A stretch of 63,772 nucleotides of DNA, counting the filler, from Reticulomyxa filosa (lineage: Eukaryota > Protista > Foraminifera): the NCBI GenBank assembly GCA_000512085.1. It is 20 parts of 20 records of this genome, joined end to end, with 100 filler letters (N's around TTAATTAATTAA, not from the genome) between each part and the next. Parts side by side here need not be neighbours in the genome. Positions count along the whole stretch, not along the records: positions 12,209 to 15,293 come from ASPP01014436.1; 19 more parts are not named here. One strand, 5' to 3'. The position numbers were made by a program, and so were the translations under genes. The notes under the pieces are model-generated. The model saw only the letters and a program-made list of their open reading frames with translations, was not told the origin of the DNA and searched no databases. Positions 2,313 through 63,772 of the stretch are shown here, one piece after another. Every line of letters starts with the position of its first letter. Position 1 is the first letter of the stretch.

Positions 2313-5300
2313 CGAGAAACAATAATCGTGGACTTGGACAGCGACAGAGTACACATCCCCGAGTCAGTGAAGTTAATCGAATTGCCTGCCAACTTGGAAA
2401 AACAATTGAAAACGGAACTCATCACGGAGGCCCATGTCAATGTGGTGGAGAGATACAAACCATCCGTTTTGCAAAACCTGGATGCTGCTTTTACTGTGCA
2501 AGATATTATGGTACACTACTATCACCACATATGAAACAATCTTAACACTTGCACATTTTGTTTTTACACATCATTCACATATATGTATATATATGTACAT
2601 ATATGTGTATATGTGTATATATAAATGTATATATATGTATATGAATATTTATATTTATATTTATATTTACATTTGTATGTGCACATATATGTTTATGTTT
2701 TTTGTCTGGTGTGTGTATGAATACAAACAATTCCCAAAAAAAAAAAAAAAAAACAATGTTGTAAATGGGCTTGAATGTAACTAGAAAGACGACCAACAAG
2801 TGCAATTTAATGCGTTTGCCTGTCGTGTGTCATTTTGGAATTTTTTTGTGTGCGGCGTGGGCATAGATTATCGGAAACATTTGCTGCATCCCAGCAACAT
2901 TGCACAAGTGCAGGGCATTAACGACTTGATCCGAATTGACGACTTCTTAAAGTCGCGCGCAAAGGCACATCGCAAGTTTTGGCACGCATTTGTACAAACG
3001 CAGGCCTTTGAAAAGTTCATCGAAGATATTTTGTTCGAAAACTCTTTGCCCGATGCCCGCAAATATCAAATCCAATGGTTTCATAAGTTTTGTTTTGTTT
3101 TTTTTCCGATTCTATTCTTACTTACATACATATATATATGTACATATATATGTATATGTATATGTATATCCTCTTTTTTAAGTGTTTGTTATTACATAAC
3201 AAAATTAGATGTTACTATCACGTGACTAACAATGCACAAGCTGCAAACAATTCAGTTTTGTCAGACAAAATTTAAAAAAAAAATAATATATATATATATA
3301 TGTACATATATGTATATGTATATATATATGTGCACATATTAAACTTTTTTATGAAATGAAAAGAGCAAGGGTTTGTTTTGCAACGGCCCAAAAATACGGG
3401 ACTATAATGACAGACACAGAGAAGATCAAGTGTGACTGGCAGCGAGTTTCATCAATGGTGTGTGAAGCAGCAAATGCACATCTTCCCGAAGTACATGGTC
3501 CCTCCCGTCAACACACTGAATATTCCCAAAGATTTTAGTTTTGAGCCGTCGGGCGTGTTTCCAATGTTCAATCCTGATCTATTCATTGAGCCTGTCGTCA
3601 AAGATGAGAAGCAAAAGGCGCCTCGAAAGCAAACGAAAGAACAAATCGAAGTTTCTGAGGAGGTGTGTGTTTCATATGAACTGCTTTTTTTTTTTTTTTT
3701 TTTTTACCTGCATGCATGTATGTGTGTGTCCCCCCTTCTCAGACATATACATATACATATACACATATATGTATGTGTAATATGTAATATGATAAATAGC
3801 AAAACCGGCCCCAGAAAGCGTGCCACAAACATACAGCTCCAAGTTTAAGTCGACGGAAGAGCGAGTAAAATATGACTTGGTACAAATTTACGGATGTTGG
3901 TTCACAATCCGCGTGGCTTCGTTGGACTTTGCTTCGGAAGCAGACTTTACTCCAAAATTTGCAGAAAAAACGTCGAAGGCGATATTGAAACTATTATACG
4001 ACATGAACGACACCACAAACAGTTTCGATGTCCCATTAAAGCCGGACGAATTGATTTTCAAGTCTTGTCTCATCATGTGTGGCAAACTGAAACGTGTCAA
4101 TGTTAAGTGAAACAAAATTCGAAGAGAAAGAGGGATTGAGTCACTAAAAAAAAAAAAATCATAAAATAAATAAATAAATATTTATTTATTTATTTATTAT
4201 TGTAATCTATTATCAATTGCATTATTCATGTTGTGTGTTGGGCAACAGGAAGCCAAACAGTTATTCAAAGACTTGAAAGAGCAAGGCATTCAACCCTCTC
4301 CAGCGACATATGGCGCCTACACGAACGCAATGGCAAGCAGCGGAACAGCGAATATATTTTTGGAGTTGCCAAGTGGGTCTGGACGTGTGTATGGAGGAGC
4401 ATCGTCAGCCCGCACCTCCCTGCAGGTGCGCAACAGAGCCTTGACTCAGCCCACGAAGCACGAGAAGCAAGCCTCGCGTAGTCGCTCGTTGGTTTTGATC
4501 AACACCGACAACAAGCCGGTTATCACTCGAAGCTCGTTCACGACCATCAATGAAACACAAGAAATCACATTTTTGAATGGCTCCAAAAAAGTTGAGTTTT
4601 GCCTCCAAATTTTTTTTTTTTTTTTGTTTGTTCAAAAAAAAAAAAAAAAAACAAAATTACAATAAAAAAAGGTTTGTTTTGGTTTGTGATCTTTTTATTA
4701 TACACATATATGTACATATATATATATATATATGTATACGTATATATATATGTGTACATATACAGACAGAACCTGAAAAAGTATCACCCGCGCTGTTACC
4801 CATGCCCAAGGTGTCCAGTCGTGGGAAGATAAGCGAGGACGATGATGACGACATCAAAGAGGACAATGAACAGGATCCACAACTCCAGCTGCAGCTGACC
4901 AAACGAAGCGAGACGAACGACATAGTGGAAGTGGAAGAAGAAAAGACTCATGCCAACAAGTTGCCACGCATCGGCTCCGCGCCGAGGGTGTTTGCAAGAA
5001 AGAGTGACAAGTTGCGACTGTCCAAAACGCCCATCGAAGATGTGAAAGAGATGGACGAAACAAAGGAACAAATGGCAACGATCATCGATTACAACACGTT
5101 GCAAATGGACACGCGACAGCAATGCAAATGTGGGCATGTGATATCCGACGCAGAAGTGATGGCCAGTTGGCCTGAGGACTTTATCTCCACCAATATCGAA
5201 TGCAAGGTGTGCAAATTGAATTCGTTGATCCCCAAAATCCATATCAAATGCTTCGCCACTGAAATGGCCTTGCACAAGGCGTCCTATCAACAAAAAACTC

Positions 5301-5635
5301 TCGATTTTTATGTCACGTATCTGTCGCCGTCGTATTTACGGCGGTCCATTGAAACAATTACCACCAAATATCGTCAGTGCTTGGAGGATTGCGAAAGCTT
5401 TCGTAAACATCGTCCCGACGAATATTGGAATCTTTTGTGGTATTTTAGCCAACGCAATCTGGACATTACCTGGCTTTTGGAAAATTTTGAAACCAAACTC
5501 CGAATTGATCAGATACTCGATCCGCAATTTACGCAATTTCCAGAAAATAATGAAGTCTGTGCAACATTTTCTTTTATGCAAATATTTTAGGGGTGGGTGT
5601 TTGCTTGTATTCACTATTGTACTATTGTTTATTGC

Positions 5636-5668
<33 letters not shown>

Positions 5669-6152
5669 CGTTATTGAATGTAGGAACTTCAGAAACAAAT
5701 GGATGTTATAATCAAATATCTCAAAGCTAAGGAATTGAAACCTGCAGCTGTGCAGTGGCTGAAGAACAGAGAAAGCACACCGACAAAAGAAAGAGGCCAC
5801 TCCGTATGGAATGTTCCGCTTCATGATGCGTTCTACAATTTAGGCGCTCCTTTGTTATATACTAAATATGAAGATTACATCAACGAACTCAAAAAAGCCT
5901 GCACCAACATTCAATCAGTTGCGTTTTTGTTATTTGTTGTAGAAATTTTGTACGTCTCTTTTAGTATTGGCAATATACATGTACATATATATTATATGTG
6001 TATATTTTGTCTTTGTTGACAAGGTTATTGGAGACTGTCCCCCGGAAAAGGATGCCATTAAATATGAGATAATGTTTAAGCATATGCGGCTAAATTACCC
6101 AAGGCTACAACAGTACAGAAATCTCATCACTTCACAACCAGCCCCAAATTAG
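2313..6152 (+). CDS. DENND4: DENND4/CRAG-like Rab GEF (DENN/dDENN, PPR, Cys-containing C-terminal domain); multi-exon, 5' partial, exon boundaries approximate
   Basis: IIVDLDSDRV (DENN end); DDFLKSR..KFWHAFVQTQAFEKFIED (dDENN); KPDELIFKSCLIMCG and EAKQLFKDLKEQGIQPSPATYGAY (PPR); CKCG..DAEVMASW..CKVC..YLSPSYLRR..YWNLLWYF (DENND4-type C-terminus); microsatellite-filled introns. Confidence 0.8.
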
Positions 6153-9229: not shown

Positions 9230-9441
9230 GCTGAAGTTATGAGTTTCGAAAGAAGTCTATTATCCTTATCTATTGGATCGTTTTCATTACTATCCGCTTT
9301 ATCGCCAAGTGCATCCTCTCTAATCAACTCATCTTTAAGACTGCCAAGCCAGCTTCTGCTACATTCATAGTTATTTTCGGTAAAATAAAAGTACTTCCCA
9401 GCATTCCCTGAACTCGTTATGTTCCGTAATGTCGCAACCAT
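9230..9441 (-). CDS. MobF (TraI/TrwC-type) conjugative relaxase N-terminus, truncated by contig end (bacterial)
   Basis: MVATLRNITSSGNAGKYFYFTENNYE..SWLG..IDKD resembles the F TraI N-terminus (SAGSAGNYY..DNYY..W.G..VDKD); GGAG 5 nt upstream of the ATG. Confidence 0.6.
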
Positions 9442-9459
9442 TCCAACTCCATCTTAAAC

Positions 9460-9612
9460 TTAATGCACTGTCGTCCGGCCTTGCTTCTTGTATATTCCTT
9501 CAAGGAATCGCCTGACTTGAATATCATCAGGATCTAGCCTAAGTACCATTCAAAACTCTTCTTCTGCCAATGCTGGGTTCCCTTGTTCGTAATATTGCGT
9601 AGTTTTCTTCAT
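9460..9612 (-). pseudogene. TPR-motif gene remnant with an in-frame TGA (bacterial)
   Basis: MKKTTQYYEQGNPALAEEEF*MVLRLDPDDIQVRRFLEGIYKKQGR fits the TPR consensus; absent from the ORF track. Confidence 0.65.
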
Positions 9613-9621
9613 ATCACTTCT

Positions 9622-10524
9622 CTATACTTTTAATTTATTGAGTTCTTCTATAGATAGTCCGGTTATTTTAGAAATATCCTGAAGATCAAAACTCTTTTTT
9701 TCTAACATGCTTTTGGCTATTTGCCATCTTGCTTCTTTTAATCCTTCTTCCTTGCCTTCTTTTAATCCTTTAGCTTCGCCTTCTTTTAATCCTTCTTCTC
9801 TGGCATTTTGTAAATTATCTTGTAGCGTCATCTCCTCAGCCTCAGCTAGCAATCGTGCCCTTATGTAAGCATCGTACTCTCCTTCACTCCAGTTAAATCT
9901 CTCAAGCCTGTCATATGCCTTAAGCACAAATGGATCTTTTACGCTTACAGGTGGCTCTCCTGATCCTTGTGAATTAGCCAAAAAATATAACCAGTAATCT
10001 TCTATACTTTTAAGTTCATTCTCTTTCTTCTTAAATTTCTCAAGCTCTATAAATACATAAGATAACGCAAATAAATGTTGCTTGTTTGTCATTTCTTCTT
10101 TCGTCTTGTGATAACTGATATACCCCACATCAGAAGGAAGAATCTTCTCCTTGCTTATCGCTATAAGTATTACAGGTAATAATCCCTTATGCATTCCCCC
10201 TCTTGATAACTGTGATACGTAAGTATGAGATGCATAAAACTGCACTCTTTCCAAAAAGTGCAATTGCTTTCTGTTTTGCATCTCAATTACGAACCAGTTA
10301 CCTTCCTGATCCCTGCACTTCAAATCAAATATACTCCTTTTCCCCTGCCCTAAATCCGGGATTTCTTCTGTTGGAATAAATTCTATTTCCTCTATTATAC
10401 TTCCCCATGATTCTCCTAGGATACTATTTAAAAAGTCTTTCATGATTCCCTTATCTGAAAAAACCTTTTTAAATGCCAGGTCATTTGTTGCATCCAGATA
10501 TCTGCTCATCTCTTTCCTATTCAA
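9622..10524 (-). CDS. rpn: Rpn family PD-(D/E)XK nuclease / putative transposase (bacterial); likely start at MSRYLD (10509)
   Basis: YLDATNDLAFKKVF, SIFDLKC..FVIEMQ..FLERVQFY, YVFIELEKF, C-terminal EG-repeat plus IAKSML..ISKITGLS helix-turn-helix; intronless. Confidence 0.93.
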   Translation of the reverse strand: MNRKEMSRYLDATNDLAFKKVFSDKGIMKDFLNSILGESWGSIIEEIEFIPTEEIPDLGQGKRSIFDLKCRDQEGNWFVIEMQNRKQLHFLERVQFYASHTYVSQLSRGGMHKGLLPVILIAISKEKILPSDVGYISYHKTKEEMTNKQHLFALSYVFIELEKFKKKENELKSIEDYWLYFLANSQGSGEPPVSVKDPFVLKAYDRLERFNWSEGEYDAYIRARLLAEAEEMTLQDNLQNAREEGLKEGEAKGLKEGKEEGLKEARWQIAKSMLEKKSFDLQDISKITGLSIEELNKLKV

Positions 10525-10601
10525 TCTAATTTTATGTTTTTATATGTTAACATATCTGCCACAAATTAATAGCAGGTAATACGAACTACCAGCTCCACCG
10601 C

Positions 10602-10949
10602 CAGGGCAATCGGATGAACATAGGCTAAAAATTGCTTAGGATTTGAGCCATATAAAGATCGCTCCAACCAGAGGTAACCCGCTTAATAGCCAAGCTTTTC
10701 TTAGCTTGATCTTTCTTTAAAATATTTAAAGCTATTCGTCTGACTATAGCATAATTTTCAGCCCCATGGTTTTTTCTTAACCTTGATTGATCCTCATTAA
10801 AGGTAACGTCAAGAACCCAATGCAATGTATTCTCCACTTGCCAGTGAGACCGAATGGCGTTGCCTATTTGCTTAGCATCTGCTTTTAGAGAGCTGATATA
10901 ATAACGTACTTCTGTAGTAGATTTGTCTTTTATTCATCCGATTGCCCTG
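10602..10949 (-). mobile_element. Internally deleted ISAs1-family element (348 bp) with perfect 17-bp terminal inverted repeats
   Basis: CAGGGCAATCGGATGAA at 10602-10618 and its reverse complement at 10933-10949; interior encodes EVRYYISSL..IRSHWQVENTLHWVLDVTFNEDQSR, the ISAs1 transposase C-terminus (stop at 10625). Confidence 0.88.
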
Positions 10950-11255
10950 ATTGTAGAGTATTGATAAGTATTTTTTGCTTGCGTTAGTTTTAATTACTTA
11001 CTATATGTTTTAATTACTTCTATACAGCAAAATGATTTATAAGAGCTTGAAGTTTGACAAATAAGCTTATCAGGAAGGTATAAATAGGCTAGTTTGTAGA
11101 TAAATGAAGTTTTGTAACAAGCTATCTGCAATAGGCAAATCCGATTCATGCACCAAAGCCCTTGCGAACCACTATAGATGCCATGTTTGCAGCAGGAATG
11201 AAGGGATGAGAGCTTCATTATTTAGAAATTCTAATAACATTTATAATAAAAATTT

Positions 11256-12108
11256 ATGACAGATATTTTTAAGATAATAGATTCAGGTGATTGGGAAAAT
11301 ATTAGGCTTGCTGTCAAAAAATATGGAATAAAAAATGTAATTAAATATTTTACTTTTCCTGAGAGGTCACATGATTTACTTAAGTTGATTCAAGAATATG
11401 AATTTGATGTTGAAGATGAAGTAATACATGGCAATACAATATTGCATTTGTTAATAGAACATTCCACCAAGTTTAATTATATTACTGTTTTACCTAGTAC
11501 TAAAGAAGAACATTTTAAAGTTATTGAAGAAATCATAAAACGCACTCCGAACATAAACAAACAAAATAATAATGGGGCAACTTGCCTACATATTGCGAAT
11601 ATCGTTCAAGATAGGGATGTTGTAGAATTGCTTGAAAGAAATGGCGCTAGGGGTGATATTAAAGATATTTTAGGTAATATTGCTTATGACCCTTGGCCTC
11701 AATTGCAGTGGCAAAGATCAGGGGAAGAGTTTCAAAAAAATATTGAAAATACTAAAATGCAGAAGAAGAAAGTTACAACAAATGCAACTAAGCCTTACTT
11801 AGAAATATCTCCATTATTTAAGAACGGGTTAATATCTCTTATTAAAGCAAAAAAATTAATCAAAGAAGCAGAAACAAATTACGGCTTAAATCTAGATAAT
11901 TTTTATGATAAGGGCGCAAATAAAAATTTTAATGCAGAGAAAAAATTATTATTTGATGAAGTAAAACCACTTTTCTGGCTAGCTAAGTATTTATCCAAAA
12001 TTGGCATTAAGGTTAAGAAAATAGATTTTTGTTCTCAAGATCAAAAATTAGGTCATGATGGAAGACTACAATTAAGTGATAATACTATAATTACGATCCA
12101 GCTAACCA
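11256..12108 (+). CDS. Ankyrin-repeat protein (bacterial, effector-like), 3' partial
   Basis: HGNTILHLL and NINKQNNNGATCLHIA..VVELLERNGA..IKDILGNIA ankyrin motifs; intronless. Confidence 0.85.
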
Positions 12109-14522: not shown

Positions 14523-15293
14523 ATGGGCAATACACCAAGCGATCATGAAAGGAAGTATAAAGATTATTTTGTGTCTGGAGACCGAATAGGTTCGGGTACG
14601 TTTGCAACGGTGAAGCGCAGTACAAGAAAAGCAGATAAAAAGGAATTTGCAGTGAAGATAATAGATAAAAGACATTTAACAGGAAGAGAATTAGTAGGAT
14701 TAAAAGATGAGATAAATATATTGAAATCAATGGATCATCCATATGTAATAAAGATGGCAGATGTATTTGACGATGGTCGTAGAGTGAAGATGATATTAGA
14801 ATTATGTGAAGGAGGCGATTTATTTGATCAAATATTAAAATCGCCAAATCGAAGATTTGAAGAGAAAAAAGCAGCACGTATAACAGCGATAATAGGAAAA
14901 TGTTTACAATATTTGCATGAGCATTTTGTAGTGCATAGAGATTTAAAACCAGAAAATATATTATTTACAAAAAGTGGGACACTTAAAGTAACCGACTTTG
15001 GATTAGCACATTTTTTAAAATTACCGCCAGATTTTCATGTTATGCATACATGTTGTGGTACACCACATTATGTAGCACCAGAAGTGTTAGGCAATAACGA
15101 ATATGGTGTGCAAATTGATTTTTGGTCTTTAGGCGTTATTTTATATATTATGTTATCTGGCTATCAACCTTTCAATTCACATTCTATTCATGCTATGTAT
15201 GGTATGATCATAAGAGGACAATATCGCTTTCCTTCTCCTCATTGGGATCATGTCTCTGAACAAGCTAAAGATTGTGTTCGAAATTTAATGTGT
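14523..15293 (+). CDS. CAMK-group Ser/Thr protein kinase, 3' partial, intronless in this portion
   Basis: IGSGTFATV, FAVKII, HRDLKPEN, DFG, CGTPHYVAPE, DFWSLGVILYIMLSGYQPF; N-terminal MGN may be a myristoylation site. Confidence 0.96.
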
Positions 15294-15393
15294 NNNNNNN
15301 NNNNNNNNNNNNNNNNNNNNNNNNNNNNNNNNNNNNNTTAATTAATTAANNNNNNNNNNNNNNNNNNNNNNNNNNNNNNNNNNNNNNNNNNNN

Positions 15394-15972
15394 ATATATA
15401 TTAGCTATCTTTATAACCATCTCCAAAAATGTGTTGAAACTACTGCTCGAGATAGTATTCGTCTCATTGAAAATTTACATCACTTTGATGTAAAACGTGC
15501 TGATCGCACTACATCTGCTCATGGACTTGAAGCCCGTGTCCCTTTTTTGGATAAAACTTTTGTTCGGCAATATTTACGTATTCATCCTTCTTTACGTACT
15601 CCTCATTATAAGGGAATTGAAAAATATCTTGTTCGAAAGGCTTTTCAGGGTTTCTTACCTGATTCAGTTTTATGGAGAACCAAAGAGGCTTTTAGTGATG
15701 GCATTTCGAGTACTTCCAAACCTTGGCATTTATTGCTTCAACAACATATTGATACTATCATTGATGACTCTACTTTTTCTCGACTTCGCTCCACTTACTC
15801 CAATCCTCCCATTAGTAAAGAAGCTCTTTATTATCGTCAAATCTATGATCGCTTCTTTGCGCCTCATGATCTTACTCCTTATTATTGGCTTCCCCAATGG
15901 TCGGCCAGCACTGATCCTTCTGCTCGGACTTTGTCGCATTATCATCAACTCGTCAAAGACTCCACTTCCTAA
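15394..15972 (+). CDS. ASNS: Asparagine synthetase (glutamine-hydrolysing), C-terminal part
   Basis: HFDVKRADRTTSAHGLEARVPFLD, IEKYLVRKAF..LPDSVLWRTKEAFSDGIS, KEALYYR, DPSARTL. Confidence 0.93.
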   Translation: MYISYLYNHLQKCVETTARDSIRLIENLHHFDVKRADRTTSAHGLEARVPFLDKTFVRQYLRIHPSLRTPHYKGIEKYLVRKAFQGFLPDSVLWRTKEAFSDGISSTSKPWHLLLQQHIDTIIDDSTFSRLRSTYSNPPISKEALYYRQIYDRFFAPHDLTPYYWLPQWSASTDPSARTLSHYHQLVKDSTS

Positions 15973-16508: not shown

Positions 16509-17072
16509 ATGGATAACGAACTGTTGTTGAATGGAAAAAGATTGCATGATGATAATTCCGACGAAAATGAAGACATTGTGCCTTCAATGGTATTGAGCGT
16601 AGGCAGTCAACTAAAAGCGCCAACAAATAATATAAATTCTTTCAGCGAAGGAGGATTTCTAACAGATAGTATCCGAGAGAACATGAATGAAATTGATCTA
16701 AAAAGAGAGATTTTGGCTGGTTTTGAAAAGCATCATGAAGTGTTTATCAAAGGTGCGACAATGAAACCCTCAATAACAAATCCAAATGATATAGATGAAA
16801 ACGATACAATGGACGAAAGTGACATCCAATCAAGTATCAAATTTAATCTTTTGACCAATTCATTAATGTCTGCTAAATCAGAGAAATCCTCAGTCACCCC
16901 AAGTGTATTTTTACAACCTGCAAAAACTGATAATCAGCTCACTTCGCCCAGACCAAGCATTTCGCGGAGTTCAAGAAATCGTAATAAAATGATGTGTTTG
17001 TGTGTGGTAGTGTTTGCAATTGCTGTAATTATAATTATTCTCTTGACTCTCAACGATCACAAAGATATGTAA
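16509..17072 (+). CDS. Hypothetical tail-anchored membrane protein
   Basis: 187-aa ORF with a hydrophilic body and a basic patch before one C-terminal hydrophobic helix (MMCLCVVVFAIAVIIIILLTL). Confidence 0.65.
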   Translation: MDNELLLNGKRLHDDNSDENEDIVPSMVLSVGSQLKAPTNNINSFSEGGFLTDSIRENMNEIDLKREILAGFEKHHEVFIKGATMKPSITNPNDIDENDTMDESDIQSSIKFNLLTNSLMSAKSEKSSVTPSVFLQPAKTDNQLTSPRPSISRSSRNRNKMMCLCVVVFAIAVIIIILLTLNDHKDM

Positions 17073-17758: not shown

Positions 17759-18863
17759 ATGCCAGCAACGCATAAACCAGTGGTGAGTAAGGATACTCCT
17801 GCTCCAATAATGGATCCTCAAAATGAGGGAAAGACAGGGTATGGTCCATTGAAGGACGAACCATTAACTACTATGTATGGTTTTGACGTGAAAGAAGCTA
17901 ATACTTTCACCGAAAGCACACCACAATTAGCAAGAAATTCTTGGTACAATTATCAATTAAAAGGCTGTCTTCCGCCCCCAATTAGTAATTCGCAACAAAA
18001 CCTGCGAATGTGGCAAGACTTGGAAATTGAGCGATTGCTTGATCATACCCCTACTCACGAAGTACACCCTCAGTTTAGCTTTCCTTTTTTTTTCGGAACA
18101 TAAAAACCTTGGAGAAAGAAATAAAAAAAAAGAATAAGAAACATATGAACCAAAGTCAAAAAAATAAGTAATAAATAAATAAAATGAAATATAATATGGC
18201 AGAAAATTGCCAGATTATCACTTTTGGCCAATGATCCAAAACGAAAATTCGCCGAAACCAAAAGTAATCACCCCAGTAATGGCAGAATACCATGGTGATC
18301 AATCTCATTTGCCACGATTTTCAAAATTGGGCATACCAAAAACGCCTCCACAAGAACAGGACTTTTATCTGCCATTGAAACCAAATGGCAGATTTGATTG
18401 GAGACGAAACATCGCAGCGAATGGTTACACTGCATCCCTGTTCAGTCGTTTAGGCTGGGAAAAACGATATTTAGTTAATGTTGGTGCCAGTGAACAACCT
18501 CCATTACTTTCAGGGTTCAAAATCATGAGCAACTTCCCTATCCATTTTAGACAAGCTGAATTGCCATGGACACAACGAATTACACGTGCTTTCAGTGCGT
18601 CTCATTTGGACAGAACTTTTATCTTCATCACTTTATATTGTGCCTTGTTGTTATCGGCAAGTGCTAGTGGCGCTCATTGTTATGTTCTTTTCTCTTCTTC
18701 TTTTTCCTCTTTTTTTCTGTTAATGTATGCCACTAAAGTGTGCTGTGCCTTGTCACTCGATATCACAGACCGAAATCTCAACTGGAACAACGAGTCTTGG
18801 AACTACGATATAAAATTCATGCACTATCAAAGAAACAAAGGTGGATTTCATGGTGTGGTTTAA
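17759..18863 (+). CDS. Hypothetical spliced protein with a C-terminal hydrophobic helix (introns roughly 18062-18200 and 18680-18768)
   Basis: Consecutive coding-like ORFs separated by GT..AG low-complexity segments; no family recognised. Confidence 0.6.
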
Positions 18864-20725: not shown

Positions 20726-22640
20726 TGTTGTTGTTGTTGTTGTTGCAGTGATAACTTTGCTTCTTCCTTGTTCAACTCATTGGTTGCATCGGGTTCGCTC
20801 ATGTCAGCCGACATAAGCGTCTCGTGTCGCTTTGGAGACATCACGTGCTCGTTGATGGCACTGGACAGAGGCGATTGTGTGTGGAGCGTGATTTCCGTCA
20901 TCGAGCCGAGCGTTTTGAAGTGATCACGACTTTGCAGATAGCGATTTAAAGAGTGCGATTGAGGTAGTTTGGAAATTGGCGGATGAGTCACTATTATCAA
21001 TGGCTGTTCGTCCAGCTCTTCCGTTTCTATCTCTGTCTTTGTTGCGTCCATTTTATTTTCGTCGTTTTGTTGCTCTTGTTCGGGACCAAGGTCACTCTGA
21101 CTTTGATCTGGATTGGCGTTGCCATCAGAGACCGATGGATTCGCGTCCTTTTCACCAATCACGTCGCTCAAATCAGTTGAAATGTTTTGTAGACTGGAAT
21201 TGTCCCACGATATCGATGACAATATCGAGTCTGTTCCTGTGTTTTATTTCATTGATAAGTTATTTTACTATTGTTGTTATTTTCTCCTTCCCTTCTCTTT
21301 CCTCCCCTCAAAAAAAAAAACTTGAACTGGAGGAAGTCATGGACTCGTGAATCGGGGTCAACGGCGATTGCCAAGCTGAGCGAGAGGAGGAGGAGGAGGA
21401 GGAGGAGGCATCAACACGGCCTGCGAGCGTGCCCATTGTTTGGTGTTGGTCTGAGACTCGACCTCTTTGCGCTCGACAACGAGTTGTGTTCTCACGTCTT
21501 CGTAATGAGCCATCGCTTCGTCGATCCTTTGCTTCTTGTCTTTGTCCTGCTGTTTCAAACTGACGCCATTGACGCTGAGTCTGATTTTCTTGTGATCGTA
21601 GTCTTGAGTAGGTGCCAGAGAAGTGCGGGAGACCAATGTCCCCGACTCGACAACATCAGCGGCGCTCTCGCACGCGACCAGGCCGTCTGTCAAAGGACGA
21701 GAGGCCTTGCCGGACGCGGGTTTGGTCCCGTGCACGGGGACATCTCCGATAATAATGATACTTCCAGTCTGTTCGTGACATGGGGACATGTCTTTATCGG
21801 CGAGGTCAGAAGCATGAAGATCGCTTGTATCCACTGGCGATGGTGCATTATGCACGCGTCCTGCGGTCGACCCTGGGAAGTGCGTATTGCTAGTGCGATG
21901 AACCAGGTATTGCGTCGGACCCATTGCCGACGCCGACGCCGACGCCGACGCCAATGCCAACGATGACGTTTTGCTGGTGTGATTTTGGCTCGTATGACGA
22001 CTGTGATGCGGATCGTCAGCGTCCCAGTATTTATCTGTCACGATAAAGTCACTCGACAGATCGCTGGGCGTAAAGTTACGCATATGACAGTCTGGAGATT
22101 TGGCCGTCAGTCCGTGTTCGCTCGAAATCGACGGAAATTTCCTTTGCTCCGACGCGACGAGCAAGCTTGGCTGATGTCGCGCGCGTTTCGTTTCTGTGTG
22201 ATCTGCACTTTCTAACTCACGCGTCCGCTCATTGCTCATTGTACTGCACGCACTATCGCTACTTGCTCTGTCTTTCAATGTCGGCGGCGACGGTACCATC
22301 GGTCGGTCGCCAGAGTTGCTTTTGCTCACGCCTTCTTCCATTGCACTGGGCTCTCTCTTCGCTTGATCGAAATGACGGGTCTTCAATTGCTGTGGACCTT
22401 TTCGGTTCATTTCGTGACCATTCATGCTGCTGTTGTTGCTATGGCTGCTGCTCCCGTTGCTGCTGTTCCGCTTGCCACTCAGGGCCAATGCACTATTGTC
22501 CGGCTTCTTGCTATCGTTCTCGTTCGCGACATAACTCATGTGGCTTTGGCTACCACGGTCGTGTTCCGTCTGGCTTACGTCGTACTCCAAGTCTTCCGCC
22601 TCGCTGTTACGACGCAATGCTGGCCGCTTTTTTTTTTTTC
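20726..22640 (-). CDS. Internal exons of a large low-complexity Ser/Pro/Gln-rich protein
   Basis: 419-aa and 182-aa ORFs with poly-Pro, (SA)n and poly-Gln tracts. Confidence 0.6.
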
Positions 22641-37522: not shown

Positions 37523-39121
37523 ATGTGGTGGACCCGACTGTGGGTAGCAAAGGGACGAATAGGAGACTGGACGAAAGGGAGCACACTGCAGCCGAAGCAG
37601 CAAATAAGAAGACAAACAAAGATATCAACAAAAAGACAGACGGAATTGCGCAACCTCGAGCAACGACAGTACCTGAAAAGATTGAGGGGACAAACGAGTT
37701 CACTGATGCGAGCAGAAGACAGAGGAGCAGAGAAGGAAGCGATACGACTGCAAACAAAGCAGCTGCAAATAGCACAAAATGAGCAGAACATCAATGCCGT
37801 AATACATTGCATAAACAAAGTGGAAGACCAAAATATAGAAATGGACATTGTGTTTTGCAATACAGCATTGGATATATTTGCCAATAGTGACAATTATAGT
37901 TTGGCAAACAAGTATTTTGAAAAGTGGTTTCAGCAAAACAATAATAATAATAATAATAATAAATTAATTCCGAGTGACGTGACATTAAACATAATGATAA
38001 AGTCATGTAAGTACAGAGGTTTAATAAAAGAAGCGATGAAATATTTTTGTCGCCTCAAAGAAAAGAGCGCGATAGCGTACACAAACATTTTGACCGTGTG
38101 TGCCAAGGCATTGGACTGGGAGCAAGCGGAGGACATATTTTACAACGATGTGATGAAACGTCTGCGCGACAATAATGCAATCGTCGTATTGGACGACACG
38201 TTAATAGGATCAATGCTGAACGTATACTCAAAGTGTCGACAAATGGAAAAAGTTGGAAATTTCTTGCACGAGGTGTCACAGCTCCTGGCCAAAATGGGAC
38301 GTCGTTTCCGACTGAATGAAGTCCATTGTGTGAACATCATGTCCGGATACTTGTCGATCAACCAGCCAGAGTCTGCTCTCCAATTTTATTCCATCATCAT
38401 CAATTCCGATATTGGCATTCACACTCGACGATATCATCTGCTCCTCGAAATGAAGTGCGTTGCACATTTGCAGGCTTTATCGCACTTGACAAATCTTGGT
38501 CTTCACTCTAAGAGTGATGTCGATCATTATCGTCAATTCCTCGCCACATTTATACATGATTTGTATCCGTCATCATCATCATCATCATCGTCGTCGGAGA
38601 GACATCCCATTTCTGTGACTGATATGAATCGATTGATTCGATTGTTCATTTATCGACGCAACCGAATGTGGGGTCCTGACATCATTGCTGATATCCAAAC
38701 TCTACTGTTTGCGAGTCCTTCTTCTCATCATTTCAATATATCACAGGACTATCATATTCGCTCTTATCGCTTCCATTTGATCGACTTCCATGGAATGTCC
38801 ACAGAGGTCGCCATTCTCGTCCTGCGATTTGTTATGGCATTTCACAGACGTCTTCTTCTTCGATCCATTGTCCACGAACGCATCTCCGTGGTTTGTGGCA
38901 AAGGCGTACATTCGTCTTCTACCATCAATGCTGGATCTAACGTTGCTAAACAAGCCATCACTCTTCAGAACGAACTAATGTCGTGGCAGGTGCCCATTCG
39001 ACTTTATCGACATCCTGATGATCCTGCCTTGTTCTTTTTCGATTCACATGACCTCGATTTGTTCTTTAAAACATTCCCACCATTGCGTATCGATTTTTGT
39101 CCTCAACTTATTCCTAGTTGA
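37523..39121 (+). CDS. PPR-SMR protein
   Basis: PPR motifs (DIVFCNTALDIFA, SDVTLNIMIKSC, SAIAYTNILTVCA, LIGSMLNVYSKC) and C-terminal SMR motifs LIDFHGMS..A and ISVVCGKGVHS. Confidence 0.85.
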   Translation: MWWTRLWVAKGRIGDWTKGSTLQPKQQIRRQTKISTKRQTELRNLEQRQYLKRLRGQTSSLMRAEDRGAEKEAIRLQTKQLQIAQNEQNINAVIHCINKVEDQNIEMDIVFCNTALDIFANSDNYSLANKYFEKWFQQNNNNNNNNKLIPSDVTLNIMIKSCKYRGLIKEAMKYFCRLKEKSAIAYTNILTVCAKALDWEQAEDIFYNDVMKRLRDNNAIVVLDDTLIGSMLNVYSKCRQMEKVGNFLHEVSQLLAKMGRRFRLNEVHCVNIMSGYLSINQPESALQFYSIIINSDIGIHTRRYHLLLEMKCVAHLQALSHLTNLGLHSKSDVDHYRQFLATFIHDLYPSSSSSSSSSERHPISVTDMNRLIRLFIYRRNRMWGPDIIADIQTLLFASPSSHHFNISQDYHIRSYRFHLIDFHGMSTEVAILVLRFVMAFHRRLLLRSIVHERISVVCGKGVHSSSTINAGSNVAKQAITLQNELMSWQVPIRLYRHPDDPALFFFDSHDLDLFFKTFPPLRIDFCPQLIPS

Positions 39122-39303: not shown

Positions 39304-41058
39304 ATGAGATCATTTTCGTATATACAGCAATATGTGGAGGGTTTGATAAATGGTGCACAAACGATGAAGGATGTGCTGAAATTGTTGAGTGAATTGTTTG
39401 AGCTGAAAGAGCTAAAAGAGGTCTTGACTGAAAAAATGAGCAAGATGAACGAGCAATTGGAAAAGGGAAGAACAGTCGAAAATGAACACGAGTACTTATC
39501 ATTGAAAGAGAAGATCTGCAACACATACTTGCGCATAGCATCAATGGACGAAGTTCTCCCAGCAAATGTGCATTTGCACATATTTTCCTTTCTGGAGACC
39601 AGTTCTTTGGCCTGGCTGCCTGTGCTTTCTCGCTCTTTCCGTCAATTATTTATTTCTAACCCTTTCGTGTACAAATCAGTTTCCCACGACCAAACAGCAT
39701 CATTTTTATTTCTATTATTATTATTATTATTATTTGTTCATTTATTTATTTATTTATTTTTTATCAATACAAAATCAAATGGAGCATGTACGCACATGTG
39801 CACAAACGCATGTACGCATGTGCGTTGTGTTTGTGATGGACGTCAAATGGAAAGTTCGCATTGAAAATAACGGAGCCGACACCCGAGCAGTACCTGTTAT
39901 CAGAGTACAAAGAAAAGGTGAAGTTATTAGTGGACAGCAAGCAGAAAGAAGTCATTGTGGAAATAGTGGAGCGAGCGCAAGCGAAGCAATATCAAACAGC
40001 GGATATGTTTTTGAGCGATCAATACATGTCAATGGAGCAATTTCCCTGGCATCGTCTGCAGAAATGGACGTTGTGCACGAGTCGTCACTCGTGGACGTAT
40101 CCGACACGAGTGGTGCAGACAAAGCCGCAGCTGCTGTACCGATCACACTTTGATCCGAGTAGCAACGAGCAATGGAGACATGCAGTGTCATTTTGGAAAT
40201 GGTACACAATCAACAAAAATGGTGACAATGATGATAACAATAACAATAACAATAACAATAATAATGACAATGACAAGTCCTTGAAGGGGCTGATATCGAA
40301 CCTCGACCCGCGACAACGACGTTATCCCATTAACGCTTTTTCGCAAATCACATCACAAATACAAGTGGATCCCATGTTGAGCGAAGACGTGACAAAGCTG
40401 TTGGACAATTTGGAGGGACGCATGTTGGTCGGTAGAAACCACGGCTTTGTGGACTACACGCGTGTGTTGTCATCGCAGCAGCTTCGAGACATTATGGAAA
40501 CGACAGATCACAGTCATTATTTGTACCAGGCCAAGTTCCTCGCCCACGCCATCGCCGAGCTGAAACATGAAAACAGCGCATTCGAACACAATCTCAGTCT
40601 CGCGTTATTACCCGTTAAGTTGTCCAAGTATGTCGAGTCCTCCGATCCTCCCATTGACACGCCTATATTTTGTATCACCACCGACAGACAAGAGAAGGCC
40701 AAGCCTTCCATTTCTTGGAACATTAGTTTATTTTATATTTTTTTTTTCATTATCTAAAAGGAAAAACGAGAGGGTCCATTTATTGTTATTATTTTATATT
40801 TTTTTATTTTTTTTTTAAAAAGAGACAAAAAAAGAAGCCGAGAAAGATAATCAAATCAAAAAGACATTAGAACGAGTAGCACAGATGTGTGGCAACGGCG
40901 TGGATCTGCACAAACTGATGGACGTGGAATGCACTCCGAAAATGGCCGCATCCAAACGGGTCCAATGTTTGTACGACCATGTCCTTTGTATACGTGAGTC
41001 GATGGAAAGAGCAATGACCGAAGCCAGTTGCCAGTGTGACCATAACACCACCAATAGC
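39304..41058 (+). CDS. F-box-containing protein, multi-exon
   Basis: Coiled coil followed by MDEVLPANVHLHIFSFLETSSLAWLPVLSRSFRQL (F-box consensus). Confidence 0.65.
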
Positions 41059-45392: not shown

Positions 45393-46502
45393 ATGTCGAG
45401 TTTTGATCATCTAATCAAAATACTTGTGATTGGTGACTCAGGTGCATACTCTTTCGTTGTTTTTTTTATTTAGTCATATTTCGATTCAGGGGAAATCGCA
45501 CAAGGGAAGTGTTTGGGGGGGGGAAAAAAAAAGGTGTTGGGAAGACCTGCCTTCTGTTGAGATTCGCAGAACAGACATTCCAAACCAGTTTCATCTCCAC
45601 CATTGGGTGTGTGTGTACATTTTCAAAGCCAAACAAACAAATAAAAAAATCAGTAAGATAGAGGCGCAAGAAGAGACGAGGGAAGGGAATGTTACGAAAA
45701 GAATAGAAAAGGAGAGAAAAAAAAGCAATTCCAAAACACAAAAGGATAGATTTCAAAATGAAAACAGTGGACATTGATGGAAAGACAGTAAAGTTACAAA
45801 TATGGGACACCGCCGGACAAGATCGGTTTCGCGCAGTAACGACAGCATATTATCGAGGAGCAATGGGAATAGTATTAGTTTATGATATCACAGAACAGCA
45901 ATCATTTCAGAATGTTGGAAATTGGATCGAAAATATCCACGAGCATGCTTCAGATGACATTCCTATCGTTTTAGTTGGAAATAAATGCGACAAGATTGAA
46001 GAACGAGTTACACAAAAATACAAATATAAATATAAACATATACATAAACATATACATATACACATATATGCAAAGATTGCATATGATATTAATATCAAAT
46101 AGTAATGTTATAAAACAAATGAAAAATAATAAAAAATAAAATCAAAGGTAGTGTCGAAAGAAGATGGCAAGAAAATGGCAGATCAGTATTTAATGAGGTT
46201 TTATGAGACTAGTGCCAAAACTGACATCAATGTCAAAGACATGTTCATCAACTTAGCTAGGGACATCCTCATTCGGAACCAAATCAAAGTTTTGACTGAT
46301 TGTTATTGTTACCTTTTTTTTTTTTTTTATTTGTGCTGTTGTGTTTTGAACTATGCTTTAATAATACGTTTATTTAATTGCTGGTGCTTGCATCCTATAG
46401 GAGGAATTACATAAACAAGCCAAAGAAAAGGGCACTAAGATTAAAGACACTCCGGCCAAATTGGAAATGGCCAATGCCAAAAAAAAGTGTAATTGTTCGT
46501 GA
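45393..46502 (+). CDS. RAB8: Rab8/Sec4-like GTPase, five exons
   Basis: Spliced product [62 protein letters not shown]. Confidence 0.9.
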
Positions 46503-46901: not shown

Positions 46902-47476
46902 ATGCGAAAACTAGCGGCATCAAAATCGAAGACAAAACATTGGCCCCAATATTTTCCAACCTTGCGTCTCTCACGATTAGACCAACAAAATTTCCAGGAC
47001 TTTCGGTCGTCGCGTCCACAAAAGGTGATACAAACGACGAAGAGCAGTGAGCCGGAAGAGCAAATAGCGTATATTCCGTTGAACGTTCCAGTAATGAAGC
47101 CGCAGATATCTCTAGCGGCACGCACTCGTTGTCAAATCGACAGTGTATGGCAGGAGAACTACAACACGAGGAGATATCGCATAGCATTGCCGAAACCGGA
47201 CTTACCACTCGGTATCCTAACCAGTTCGGCGGTGAATTTTCACGGCTTTGTGGGCCAAAAGAAGTCTCAAATAACGGAGTCGTATTTCCCAGTGAGCGAC
47301 TCGGGATTGCTTGGTGCGGCCGAGTTTGTCATCAAATTGTATCCAAATGACCTGATGAGCGAATATTTGTTCGGCTTACGAGCCCATGATTTCGTTAACA
47401 TTTCCGGGCCTGTTCCACACTTGTCTGTCCCTGAGGCTTTCGCTGGGAAGTCGCACATTGTTATGATTTGCGGAGG
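46902..47476 (+). CDS. NADH-cytochrome b5 reductase-like protein (FAD-binding domain), 3' partial
   Basis: NTRRYRIALP..LG, FVIKLYP..MSEYL..ISGP, HIVMICGG. Confidence 0.75.
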
Positions 47477-47607
47477 TTTCTCCCTTTTTTTTTTTTTTTT
47501 TTTTTTGNNNNNNNNNNNNNNNNNNNNNNNNNNNNNNNNNNNNNNNNNNNNTTAATTAATTAANNNNNNNNNNNNNNNNNNNNNNNNNNNNNNNNNNNNN
47601 NNNNNNN

Positions 47608-49345: not shown

Positions 49346-51421
49346 TTATTTGTTGGTTTGGTTGCTTGCTTGTTTTAAGCCAAAACCCATGTTCGTGTTG
49401 TTTATCTTCAGAATTGTACACTTTCTTTCTGTAAAATGTTTGTTGAGATTCTTTTTGTCATCGGAATCAGTTTTTTGAATCCAATGATATTTTTTGCGGT
49501 GGGTTTTTTTTAGCCGTTTGTCGTGATTTTCGTCATTGTCATTGTTGTTATTACTATGATTGTGGTTGTGGTTATTGTTCATGTAGTCTTTATTGTCATC
49601 ATTTGCAGGGCTATTGCTATTATTGGTATTCGTATTTAATATTATTAACGTTAATATTTGCATTTGCATTTGTGTTTGTGTTTGTGTAGTGGTTGTAATT
49701 ATTGTTGTCAGTCACATTGTTTAATTTGGTTGGATCCGTTTTCAAGTTGCTGTCTTTCTTGGAAATGGTAATTCCTTGCATGCCAATTGTAATTCCTGCA
49801 TTCAATCCTATTTGGTTTCTCCGCGCCGATTTTAGCCCAGGGTTGTCGCACTCGCCCATCCCTGATCCAATGTCCATTCTCCCGCTCATGCCTTGTCCCA
49901 TTCCCATGTCCATGGTATATGTTTGCGGTATGTGGAACCGATTCCGTTTATTGTTTGCGGATGCACCGGCTGAATTACTGACCAGTAAATCGCATTACCA
50001 TTGCTGCTATTGTGATTCTGCTCATTCAAATGGATCGTGGACTTCTTCACTTGTGCTCGCGTTGGAGTTTGCTCATTCTCTGTTTGTTGCTCCCAATGGA
50101 TTGGAAATACCAAACTTTATCTTTTTTTTTTTTTTAAAAAAGGATAAAGTGTTTTAATTTTATTTTCAATGTTTTTAGTTTTACTTACATAAACAAATAA
50201 ATATAAATATAAACACAATATAAATAAATACATATACACGTGTGTATACATATATATAAACGTAAACAACTAACTAACTGCTTTCAAAGTTTTCAAGGTC
50301 CAATTGTATGTTGGTGTTTTTGAAACAGCCTTTGGAATAAACCGAGTAAGTACTGATAATCTGATCTATGTTCAAATCTCAACTCCCGACAGTACTTTAG
50401 GTATTGAGAGCATTCTTGTGGCAAGTCCTCGCACAACTCTTGAACCGACGTTTTTTGTTTCATCGTCGCAATTTGAGAATATTTTTATTTGCTTTTCGCC
50501 TAAGTGCAATACATTTTTTAAAAAAAATTATTACTAAAAAAAAAAAAAAAGATTGATCAGTTCATTTACTTAAACAAACAAACAAAATATAAATATTACA
50601 ATAAACACACTTTAAGTCCTTGCCAAGGCAGCTTGCCTTGCTTGATGAAATATAATAACACATAACTCAACGTTTTCAAGTCGACTCTGCAGGCTTGTCC
50701 GTGTCCTAAGTGCGTATTAACACCCGCATACCGTGCCGTTCCGGTGAGTGATTTCCCCTTCACGAACGGGAAATGTTTACCTGTCTTTGGAACGATACAT
50801 TGTTTTGCTAGCTCAAAATCGATCACGTAAACCTTTTCTAATTATTTGAATATGCATACATATACATATATACAAATAATATTTTTTTAGCAACATTTAT
50901 CACAACCACAAGTTGCAGGTGTACATGTACATTTCCCCCTTTTTTTCTTTTCCCTTCAACTGACAATGTTTTAAGTATACGGTTTTTTTTTTAAAAAAGA
51001 AACCAAGAGAAAGAGGAGAATGGAACGAGGGAAGCAGGAAAAAAATGCTTGATGAGTGTTTTTTTTAGTCACACATAAAAGTGTTGGGGTATTTCTCTCT
51101 TTTTATAAACAAACAGTTCGTAGCGAAAAACGTCGATCACAGTAGTTGAAAAGATCTTCTAAACTTGGGCCTAACATCTCCATCACTAACGCGTTGAATT
51201 CTCCTTCTTGTCCGAACCATTTTACTGCTGGCACTCCTTGACTTCCTTTCAAAATTTTGTAAGTCTTATGCTCGTATTGCAGTTCGGGAAGTTGTGTTCG
51301 CCTTTTCCAACTTCACTGCTCCTGTTGTCACATGCTCGCTTTCATGAATCACTCCAAAACTTCCACTTTCCCATCCAATATATATATATTGTCCGTGGGC
51401 GACCCGGATTTCAAATGCCAT
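49346..51421 (-). pseudogene. Casein kinase 1 pseudogene with introns retained
   Basis: [51 protein letters not shown]; frameshifts, and DFG changed to DFE. Confidence 0.85.
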
Positions 51422-61439: not shown

Positions 61440-62250
61440 TTTTAAACAGACTGCGCATTTTGATAAAAAATGATTGTTTTTTTATTTGGATGCTTTGCAT
61501 CTGTCAGTAAAAGAAAATAATAATTGAATATGGGGTAAGGCCCCCCGTCTCCGCAAGGAGTAATAAAGGTTTGTTGTGTATATATATATATATTTTTTGA
61601 TATAATTAACTTTGTGTTTTTGAATAACAGCCTCAACCCGTCCAAAAAAAAGTATGTTCACGTCCTCATCATATACAAAGAAAAACTTTGGGGTTGAAGC
61701 CAATCCGCATTCCAAAAAAAATAAAAGAGTTTGTAATTTTTTTTATTTATATGTTGTTTTTTTTTAAAATGTTGTATGATTGTAAATAGGCATGCCCCCA
61801 TAAAAAAAAATTCTATGTACAATCTCTACGTTAAAAAAAAGAAAAAAAATATGTCATTGTAATTGGTGCTTTAGCTCCATTGCAAAAGTGTGTTTTTTTG
61901 GTTTTTTCTTTAAAAATGAAAAAATTATTCAATTTGTGAATTTGTTCATATGAAACAAGAACAATGAACGATTGTAAAGTTTTTTGTTTGTTTTTTATTT
62001 TTGTTTGAGATTATATGGATATGGGAAAAAAGGGGGAAATGTGGAAAGGGAGAAAATTGAGGGAAAACTTTGTTTAAGAAAAATGAAAAAAAAAAAGAAT
62101 GACAAAATAGAAAAAAAAAGATCAAAAAAATGTAAGAAAAGAAAAAGAGAAAGAAAAAAAAATGGAAAAAAGGTTAATTGAAAAAAAATTGAAAAAAAAA
62201 GATTATAAGGAGGAAAAAAAAAAGAGTAAAAATGAAAAAAAAAAATGTGG
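61440..62250 (+). repeat. Copy 3 of the hairpin-containing dispersed element plus A-rich tract
   Basis: gatgctttgcatc, tggggtaaggccccccgtctccgcaaggag, gcctcaaccc..gggttgaagc, taggcatgccccca, aattggtgctttagctcc. Confidence 0.9.
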
Positions 62251-62259
62251 AAATGCGCA

Positions 62260-63772
62260 TAAGCGCACTGTGCAAAGAAAAAGATGTCGTTCTCGACAAA
62301 GAGACGACATTGTCAATATTTTATTTATTGAGCGGTCAGCTTGGCGACCGTGAAACATTTAGTGTTTGTTGGACCAGTTTGGTCATTGACGAGTGGGATC
62401 CAAACGAGCACAAGGCAACTGATGCTGGAAATTGGTGATCGTGTGAGAACAGCACGTTACAAGATAGGAGTTGTTCGTTTCATTGGACCATTGGACTTTT
62501 CAAGATGTGTGTTGATTTTAGTTAAGCTGGATCGATGGAGCATCATGCAACCGACTGCAGTGTCAATGGCACTCTTATTTTGATTTTATGTGTGGACGTG
62601 GTTATTTCGATTGTATCCGATATCGTCAACACAAGAAACCGCATAGCCAGATTACAAAGCTTACTTCCAAAACGACTATCTTCAAAATTCGTGTCATTCG
62701 TTTCATTTGAACCACCGAGGCAACTGGCACTGATGAAATTACTATTTGGTTTTGTGTTATTTCTGTTTGTAAGAATAAACAACAAATAAATAAATAAATA
62801 TGTATATTTGTTATTATTATTTATAATTAATTTGTTTTTGTTTTTGTGGGATGTAAATGCAAAAGATTGATGTATAGGCGAAACAGTGTTGTTTGAGGTA
62901 TCATATGCTGTGGGCATTTTGCACACAGAAAGGCAATCTCAAATACAGTGTTCCGCAAAAAAGAGCAGCATGACGAACTTCAATGACCTAATGGTAAAGA
63001 CGATTGAGTACGTATAAGAAAAACAACGATGAAGGCGATTGTATAACAATAATAAAAAGAAATAGAAGAAATACTTGTGATTGAATGAAGAAAAAGTGGC
63101 CCATTATTTGACTGGGAAATCCATCAGATTCTGTCCACGGACGATTGACCCGGATGCATATTTGAACACGACGGCGCGATTGGAACCATTTGTTTCTTAG
63201 GAAAAGCTGATTCCAAAGGTCAAATTGCCGTCGTCATTGAGTTGGACGAGTTGTAGACATCTTCAAATAATTGAATTGAAAGAATTCATATCCATTCACA
63301 TTGCCAAGACGATCCGAATGCTTTGAGTGGGTTTTGCTGCTTGGACTTGGGTCAATACGACGGAGTCCAGTCCCGCTTCCAGTTCGTCCAAACTTGCAAA
63401 GTCGGCGAAAAAGTAAAAATGATTCATTGCAAAATGAAGTGAGATCAAGTTCATTGGATTTAGCAAGCGCGATGAAATGATCATTTTGGGATTGCCTAAT
63501 GGAGAAAGGGGGCACATGACGAAGAAAGGGGCACATGACGGAGAAAGGGGCACATAACGGAAAATTCCAAGTCGTGTGAGTTACCAACGGTGACCGTGAT
63601 AGGGTCGACACAAGAGGCAAAGACTTCAAAGTTGGCGGTCGTGTTCGTAAAGGTGTTGTGAAATGGGTTGGCAGACTGACTTTAGTCGCGGCGAGAAACG
63701 GGACCCGAACTCGATAATTGATTGATCGATGATTATGATGGAAGAAATATTCCAAGTTCACAACAACAACAA
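62260..63772 (+). pseudogene. Degenerate multi-CAP-Gly-domain gene
   Basis: LEIGDRVRT..GVVRFIGPLDF..VKLD; FKVGGRVRKGVVKWVG; multiple stops and frameshifts. Confidence 0.7.
63501..63560 (+). repeat. ~19-bp tandem repeat, 3 copies
   Basis: g(g/a)agaaaggggcacat(g/a)ac units. Confidence 0.85.

Follow-up and report, generated by a model that had tools for sequence, protein, structure and literature searches.

Purine-to-pyrimidine polarity of silent sites along exons and genes of the foraminiferan Reticulomyxa filosa

Genes and contigs of the window

The window is a 63,772-nucleotide stretch of Reticulomyxa filosa DNA in which 20 short contigs are joined end to end by 19 artificial N-linkers. We annotated 17 genes by hand, all exons of which translate without internal stops, while a bacterial contig, a frameshifted casein kinase 1 (CK1) copy, CAP-Gly and kelch-like pieces, short ORFs, and contigs with no evident coding sequence were left out. 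The features discussed here are as follows.

2313..6152, plus strand: last nine exons of a DENN-family gene; paralog P0244 aligns collinearly to exons 1, 2, 4, 5, 6, and 7 and leaves exons 3, 8, and 9 unmatched
14523..15089, plus strand: purine-ending zone of a CaMK-like kinase; A or G at 63/76 silent sites
15090..15293, plus strand: pyrimidine-ending zone of the same kinase; A or G at 5/29; the contig end cuts the gene
15294..15393, no strand: artificial N-linker between the unrelated kinase and ASNS contigs
15406..15972, plus strand: last exon of asparagine synthetase (ASNS); pyrimidine-ending all along
16509-17072, plus strand: single-exon gene of unknown family; same purine-to-pyrimidine polarity
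17759-18863, plus strand: gene of unknown family with inferred introns; same polarity
20728..22626, minus strand: two inferred exons; purine 3/22 before and 10/13 after intron 21362-21237
30030..31225, minus strand: two exons (31225-30830, 30626-30030) that adjoin in homolog P0245; purine flips from 18/33 to 8/33 and from 32/51 to 10/52
37523..38281, plus strand: purine zone of an intronless PPR(-SMR) gene; 78/97 purine
38282..39121, plus strand: pyrimidine zone of the PPR gene; 55/154 purine
37929-37960, 38570-38600, and 21384-21408: coding microsatellites that follow the sense-strand skew
39304..40724, plus strand: exons 1 and 2 of an F-box/WD40 gene (39304-39678, 39855-40724); purine to pyrimidine in each, with an inferred intron between them
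40726..40834, plus strand: intron left out of a public-run contig; the true acceptor could be about 13 nt upstream
45393..46502, plus strand: Rab8-like gene with five exons and four introns; motifs run on across exons
46902..47477, plus strand: first exon of an FAD-binding oxidoreductase; purine 36/49 to 21/49

The reading frame of the kinase begins at 14523, and the purine fraction at its fourfold sites by quarter is 0.78, 0.79, 0.78, and 0.18, with isoleucine written as ATA 12 times and then mainly as ATT. The change from purine-ending to pyrimidine-ending codons described in the initial annotation is thereby confirmed; codon 190 (about 15090) gives the best split, and a step describes the data better than a linear trend does. 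The further claim that synonymous sites carry the signal is borne out by permuting codons inside their boxes (p = 5e-5). The gene is incomplete, ending at about 77% of a protein of about 335 aa, and its closest named relatives are R. filosa proteins with 98% and 94% identity. Members of the kinase family differ at the site that follows SGYQPFNS, where an intron may have been gained or lost. A chimeric kinase was rejected since the protein aligns without a break to homologs across codon 190.

The PPR gene has the same polarity, as had been claimed, its purine fraction, taken by sixths, dropping from 0.91 to 0.33 (p = 5e-5); PPR alone was matched, and the SMR domain was not among its Pfam matches. 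Coding microsatellites match the local skew of the sense strand, (AAT)n occurring in a purine zone and (TCA)n and (CCT)n in pyrimidine zones. The ASNS exon is as strongly T/C-ending as had been noted, with purine at 14/96 fourfold and isoleucine sites and no internal slope (rho -0.03). Two different contigs, artificially joined, carry the kinase and ASNS.

Three other parts of the window may be described. The bacterial contig inside this eukaryotic assembly (9230-12108), possibly from a symbiont or a contaminant, holds a PD-(D/E)XK transposase-family gene and an ankyrin protein. The CK1-like copy at 49346-51400 (minus strand) has frameshifts and stops and is either a pseudogene or the product of read errors; its exon starts are still purine-rich by eye. 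The related elements at 35081-36725 (minus strand) and 61500-63772 (plus strand), in which long purine tracts are followed by degenerate coding pieces labelled CAP-Gly-like by eye, probably form a repeated family.

Polarity of exons and introns

The purine-to-pyrimidine polarity of silent sites is real and strong, and exceeds what chance or cherry-picking would give. When the four genes picked in the initial annotation were omitted, 18 of the 20 exons with both ends present and at least 24 sites were more purine-rich 5' than 3' (Wilcoxon p = 2e-4), and the positional trend thus extends to genes that had not been picked. Across 32 exons with both ends (1737 fourfold sites), the purine fraction by exon fifth is 0.62, 0.64, 0.56, 0.44, and 0.33, a profile almost unchanged after removal of the four picked genes, and the slope is negative in 26 of the 30 exons that have 20 or more sites. 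In the DENN gene, all 7 exons of at least 20 sites slope in this direction, none of them individually significant. Sites within one exon are not independent, and the trustworthy figures are those at exon level and those with cluster-robust errors. Internal exons (19 exons, 972 sites) give 0.63, 0.71, 0.61, 0.42, and 0.29 by fifth, and the difference between start (0.63) and end (0.29) rules out a symmetric purine enrichment at both ends. Last exons, five in number with two giving most of the sites, are pyrimidine-rich all along, already at their starts (30/84 purine versus 196/298). In exons shorter than 260 nt, no slope is evident (rho -0.10, p = 0.21), and five ORFs (484 sites) are flat: caspase-like, WD40, TPR, SAM, which has introns, and WD40 exon 3. 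These flat ORFs, which may belong to expanded families, were omitted from the twofold-site and landmark-model tests and from parts of the exon and intron tests after their flatness had been seen. An annotation-free sawtooth test gave a modest signal, positive in 16/19 contigs at 60 nt and in 10/19 at 150-200 nt.

The signal is one of purine versus pyrimidine only, in which A/T and G/C flip jointly: GC skew moves from +0.19 to -0.36 and AT skew from +0.29 to -0.34, with the same direction of shift in all eight fourfold boxes. Isoleucine ATA drops from 36/78 to 12/107, and the serine ratio AGY:TCN goes from 77:66 to 37:118. At codon positions 1 and 2 the shift is about 0.075, with Lys and Glu enriched 5' and His, Ile, and Phe enriched 3'. 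Twofold sites are trendless (A:G 196:130 versus 152:82; T:C 210:141 versus 226:159), and this lack of transition asymmetry leaves the label "mutational" that the initial annotation had attached to the pattern unproven. The strand asymmetry that it proposed does hold, in a roughly mirror-symmetric form, as complementing the 3' composition yields one that is indistinguishable from the 5' composition (p = 0.71). Skew decays about 200 nt beyond the stop codon. Gene-free DNA is nearly flat (SD 0.05-0.07 upstream of the kinase and in a gene-free contig; 0.05 over 2.2 kb on the 5' side of the kinase versus 0.23 in the PPR gene), and no mirror skew beside the jumps was found in these two non-genic stretches.

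The gaps between exons are regarded as introns rather than gene borders because of collinearity with the DENN paralog, contiguity in P0245 at 30030-31225, the public-run contig at 40726, and the continuity of the Rab8 motifs. Purine use is higher after introns (142/239) than before them (95/256), with 16 rises, 4 falls, and 2 ties among 22 introns, and the 14 better-supported introns give 54/148 before and 92/157 after (p = 1.5e-4); at intron 40726-40834, the counts are 1/14 upstream and 8/12 downstream. The Rab8-like gene has the polarity attributed to it, but not as a single trend along the gene, since the polarity largely restarts at introns; of its introns, 2-3 are purine-rich, intron 4 is T-rich, and intron 1 flips from pyrimidine to purine. 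Introns themselves run opposite to exons, with a purine skew that goes from -0.22 to +0.17 and a 3' half richer in purine in 18/22. R. filosa protein models that seemingly read into introns are F-rich after donors and K-rich before acceptors, which implies the same T-then-A order in introns at other loci. Five public R. filosa proteins (P0015, P0024, P0035, P0044, and P0244) seem to hold translated introns, an annotation artefact.

A logistic model of 2018 silent sites in 13 genes, with gene-clustered errors, gave effects of +1.87 for the ATG, +1.04 for the acceptor (z = 5.0), -1.54 for the donor (z = -4.1), and -1.30 for the stop codon, all with |z| > 4. The log-likelihood was -1306.9 with gene ends only and -1253.5 with all four landmarks, and the best decay lengths, chosen on the same data, were about 800 (ATG), 400 (acceptor), 200 (donor), and 800 nt (stop). 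An earlier outcome, in which gene position made no further contribution (chi2 2.3), came from mostly partial genes and is superseded by this model. The unit of polarity includes the exon, and gene ends act too. As such, the phasing to gene units proposed in the initial annotation stands for the long-range effects of start and stop, and it is incomplete in that acceptors and donors add effects of their own and introns reverse the skew.

The same data bear on translational selection, that is, a shift along the message from codons read by U34 or C34 to codons read by I34 or G34. The purine/pyrimidine split at fourfold sites and the unchanged twofold sites match isoacceptor classes. The skew is nevertheless present in introns and 3' flanks, and its reset at introns is invisible to ribosomes. 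Translational selection is thus largely refuted for the window by the intron data and is a highly improbable cause overall, although it could contribute in the ciliate-like genes described below.

Hairpins were rejected as an explanation because folding of 10 exons gave no consistent excess over synonymous shuffles (z -2.2 to +1.8), while intron folding (z below -2 in 9/22) follows TA and TATG repeats and not polarity. Introns with self-complementary (TA)n or (TATG)n repeats fold strongly at 2579-2698, 3123-3169, 3286-3339, 4699-4762, and 30654-30697.

Control kinases and ciliate-like loci

As controls, 80 metagenome kinases, many with truncated frames, were taken from a scan of about 1/64 of the collection. 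Their mean rho is -0.01 (SD 0.15, n = 80), against -0.40 for the window kinase, and 2/80 are as strong (L005, -0.57; L066, -0.52). These two cluster with kinases of Paramecium and Blepharisma; both are written in the standard code, on AT-rich multi-gene contigs in which neighbouring genes flip too; none of the 32 control loci placed in the tree falls inside the foraminiferan clade. In six AT-rich ciliate-like loci, four of them selected because their kinase flipped, 15/37 ORFs have a purine-to-pyrimidine slope with p < 0.01 and one has the opposite slope; without the four selected kinases, 11/33 have it. The strength of the flip increases with the GC content of the coding sequence (rho -0.56, 37 ORFs), and the intergenic halves have no clear rise (14/25). 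Three AT-rich, standard-code contigs carry an A-to-T silent flip in conserved genes.

L066:4333-19146, L005:865-5234, and L047:1460-15739: ciliate-like contigs with CaMK, PP1-like, and dehydrogenase-like genes

The gene-scale flip is therefore not specific to foraminifera. A trend no stronger than in other AT-rich protists would have told against the initial annotation, and this is partly the case, as a ciliate-like protist is equally strong. Gene-sized molecules are not required either, because the flip occurs in ciliate-like multi-gene contigs. Such molecules, or origins between genes, had been suggested in the initial annotation as the source of a replication skew phased to the ends; the roughly 800-nt extent of the ATG and stop effects would fit this, as would the sign, which agrees with the subtelomeric purine skew described in the covered part of the Nyctotherus study (PMC2633312). 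In the window, however, the skew resets at introns, several genes share a contig, gene-free flanks are nearly flat, and none of six telomere patterns was found, which is weak evidence given the short contigs. Moreover, two single-gene contigs with telomere-like repeats at both ends have a weak flip or none (L033, +0.08; L058, -0.19), against -0.52 for the L066 kinase inside a 79-kb contig. We consider this origin very unlikely.

The switch codon is nearly equal in the window kinase (190) and the L066 kinase (192, L066:10526), just past the APE motif. This may be chance, because the L005 kinase switches at codon 124. For kinase homologs of the foraminiferan clade, an amino-acid proxy gave an N-minus-C purine score of 0.027, against 0.074 for the others, opposite to expectation, in sequences that are not independent.

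Possible causes and known systems

The explanation that we prefer, with a probability of about 0.45, is that weak selection acting on nascent RNA and elongating Pol II keeps purine after starts and pyrimidine before ends. From an exon start (start codon or acceptor), silent sites and introns of the sense strand would be kept purine-rich for some hundreds of bases, and a pyrimidine-rich stretch would precede an exon end (donor or stop codon). It is possible that purine-rich RNA stabilises early elongation and provides SR-type enhancers after the cap or the 3' splice site, and that U/C-rich RNA slows the polymerase and helps mark the upcoming 5' splice site or poly(A) site. Composition may thereby act as an exon-defining gradient, with an intronless gene behaving as a single long exon; intronless genes such as the PPR gene flip as well. 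T-tracts pause and terminate yeast Pol II, according to the covered part of one report (PMC7615648).

Selection on the nascent transcript is favoured because of the phasing to splice sites, the near-confinement to transcribed DNA, the lack of transition asymmetry, and the ciliate case. Ciliate inheritance passes through a vegetatively silent micronucleus, so transcription-coupled mutation should be limited there. Several points count against it: the small set of 17 genes, the flat ORFs, the pyrimidine-rich starts of last exons, the slopeless exons below 260 nt, and a reach of 200-800 nt that exceeds exon-end enhancer zones of about 70 nt, with no binding motif identified. So does the match between the 5' composition and the complement of the 3' composition, which a DNA-level process predicts.

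Two processes at the DNA level account better for the mirror symmetry than selection on nascent RNA does. The first, and the main alternative, is strand-asymmetric mutation or repair phased to AT-rich, nucleosome-poor gaps (promoters, introns, and terminators). It might arise, for instance, from cryptic bidirectional transcription, repair synthesis, or break resection that begins in those gaps. Besides the symmetry, this explanation is consistent with the joint shift of three codon positions and introns, and the step-like switch in the kinase fits the meeting of two opposed processes. Damage to single-stranded DNA is known to leave chiefly C>T and A>G changes. The twofold sites without transition asymmetry, the nearly flat non-genic side of promoters, and the presence of the effect in ciliate-like genes all count against gap-phased mutation, which we consider less likely than selection on the nascent transcript.

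The second is selection on the DNA duplex, in which oriented pyrimidine-then-purine tracts would steer remodellers, keeping introns and gene borders open and nucleosomes packed on exons. This is inherently symmetric, and introns do go from pyrimidine to purine in 18/22; in the covered parts of the respective papers, poly-dA:dT is an asymmetric nucleosome barrier (PMC4212969) and Dictyostelium gene ends are marked by oriented tracts (PMC3371697). On the other hand, the G/C flip is as strong as the A/T flip, and a T-run precedes an A-run only slightly more often than the reverse (36 versus 22; runs of at least 6, within 30 nt), which leaves selection on the duplex unlikely.

A further and more tentative idea is possible. 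In foraminifera and, convergently, in some ciliates, a diffuse purine-to-pyrimidine gradient over thousands of silent sites might mark exons, with cap and acceptor read as one "start" mark and donor and poly(A) site as one "end" mark. The gradient might replace the polypyrimidine tract, because introns here end purine-rich; introns without the standard pyrimidine-rich 3' end suggest a different exon recognition.

Silent-site choice depends on the place of a codon relative to splice sites and gene ends and swings from about 80% to 20% purine, a dependence that pooled codon-usage statistics conceal. The effect is large enough that polymorphism data or recoded reporters alone could tell mutation from selection behind intragenic strand skews, a question open for fungi, and gene prediction in the poorly annotated R. 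filosa genome could benefit. A foraminiferan codon-usage survey reports in its main text that 5' UTRs favour A/C and 3' UTRs T/G, with an "inconsistent" preference for A or T at silent sites (PMC11980380), which the positional flip may explain. That main text mentions neither "purine" nor "strand", and no positional analysis within ORFs was found in it; the supplementary skew figures may bear on novelty. In the literature searched, with subscription papers mostly outside it, the pattern is undescribed for foraminifera or ciliates, and the covered portions of PMC5786239, PMC1557398, PMC9612004, and PMC2374712 held nothing relevant.

Comparisons with other systems are drawn from the covered portions of the cited papers. 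In Ectocarpus, C is avoided at exon 5' ends and G declines toward 3' ends at fourfold sites, so that synonymous bias is tied to splice sites with the same sign as here; unlike the mostly symmetric trends of that alga, the polarity in R. filosa flips A/T, reaches hundreds of nucleotides, responds to start and stop, and is visible by eye in single genes (PMC3787667). Fungal genes have opposite GC skews at their 5' and 3' ends, the cause of which is open (McLean and Tirosh, PMC3315797). They share with R. filosa a gene-scale sign change in fourfold sites, flanks such as UTRs, and amino-acid use, but their order (C at the 5' end, G at the 3' end, flat AT skew) is opposite in sign to ours and AT flips here; the portion of text covered describes no intron reset (PMC3315797).

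Each strand of Nyctotherus nanochromosomes is likewise purine-rich at its own 5' end. The skew there peaks within the first ~130 nt, and its 3' pyrimidine part stays outside the coding region, whereas in R. filosa it extends all through the 3' coding sequence and recurs exon by exon (PMC2633312). Poly-T/poly-A demarcation in Dictyostelium, an AT-rich amoeba, is oriented, strand-symmetric, and placed at gene borders and nucleosome-free regions, but the tracts are non-coding homopolymers outside the transcript, and the word "intron" is absent from the portion covered (PMC3371697). The polarity of R. filosa resembles known gene-end and exon-end skews and is unusually strong, yet it fails the defining features of each.
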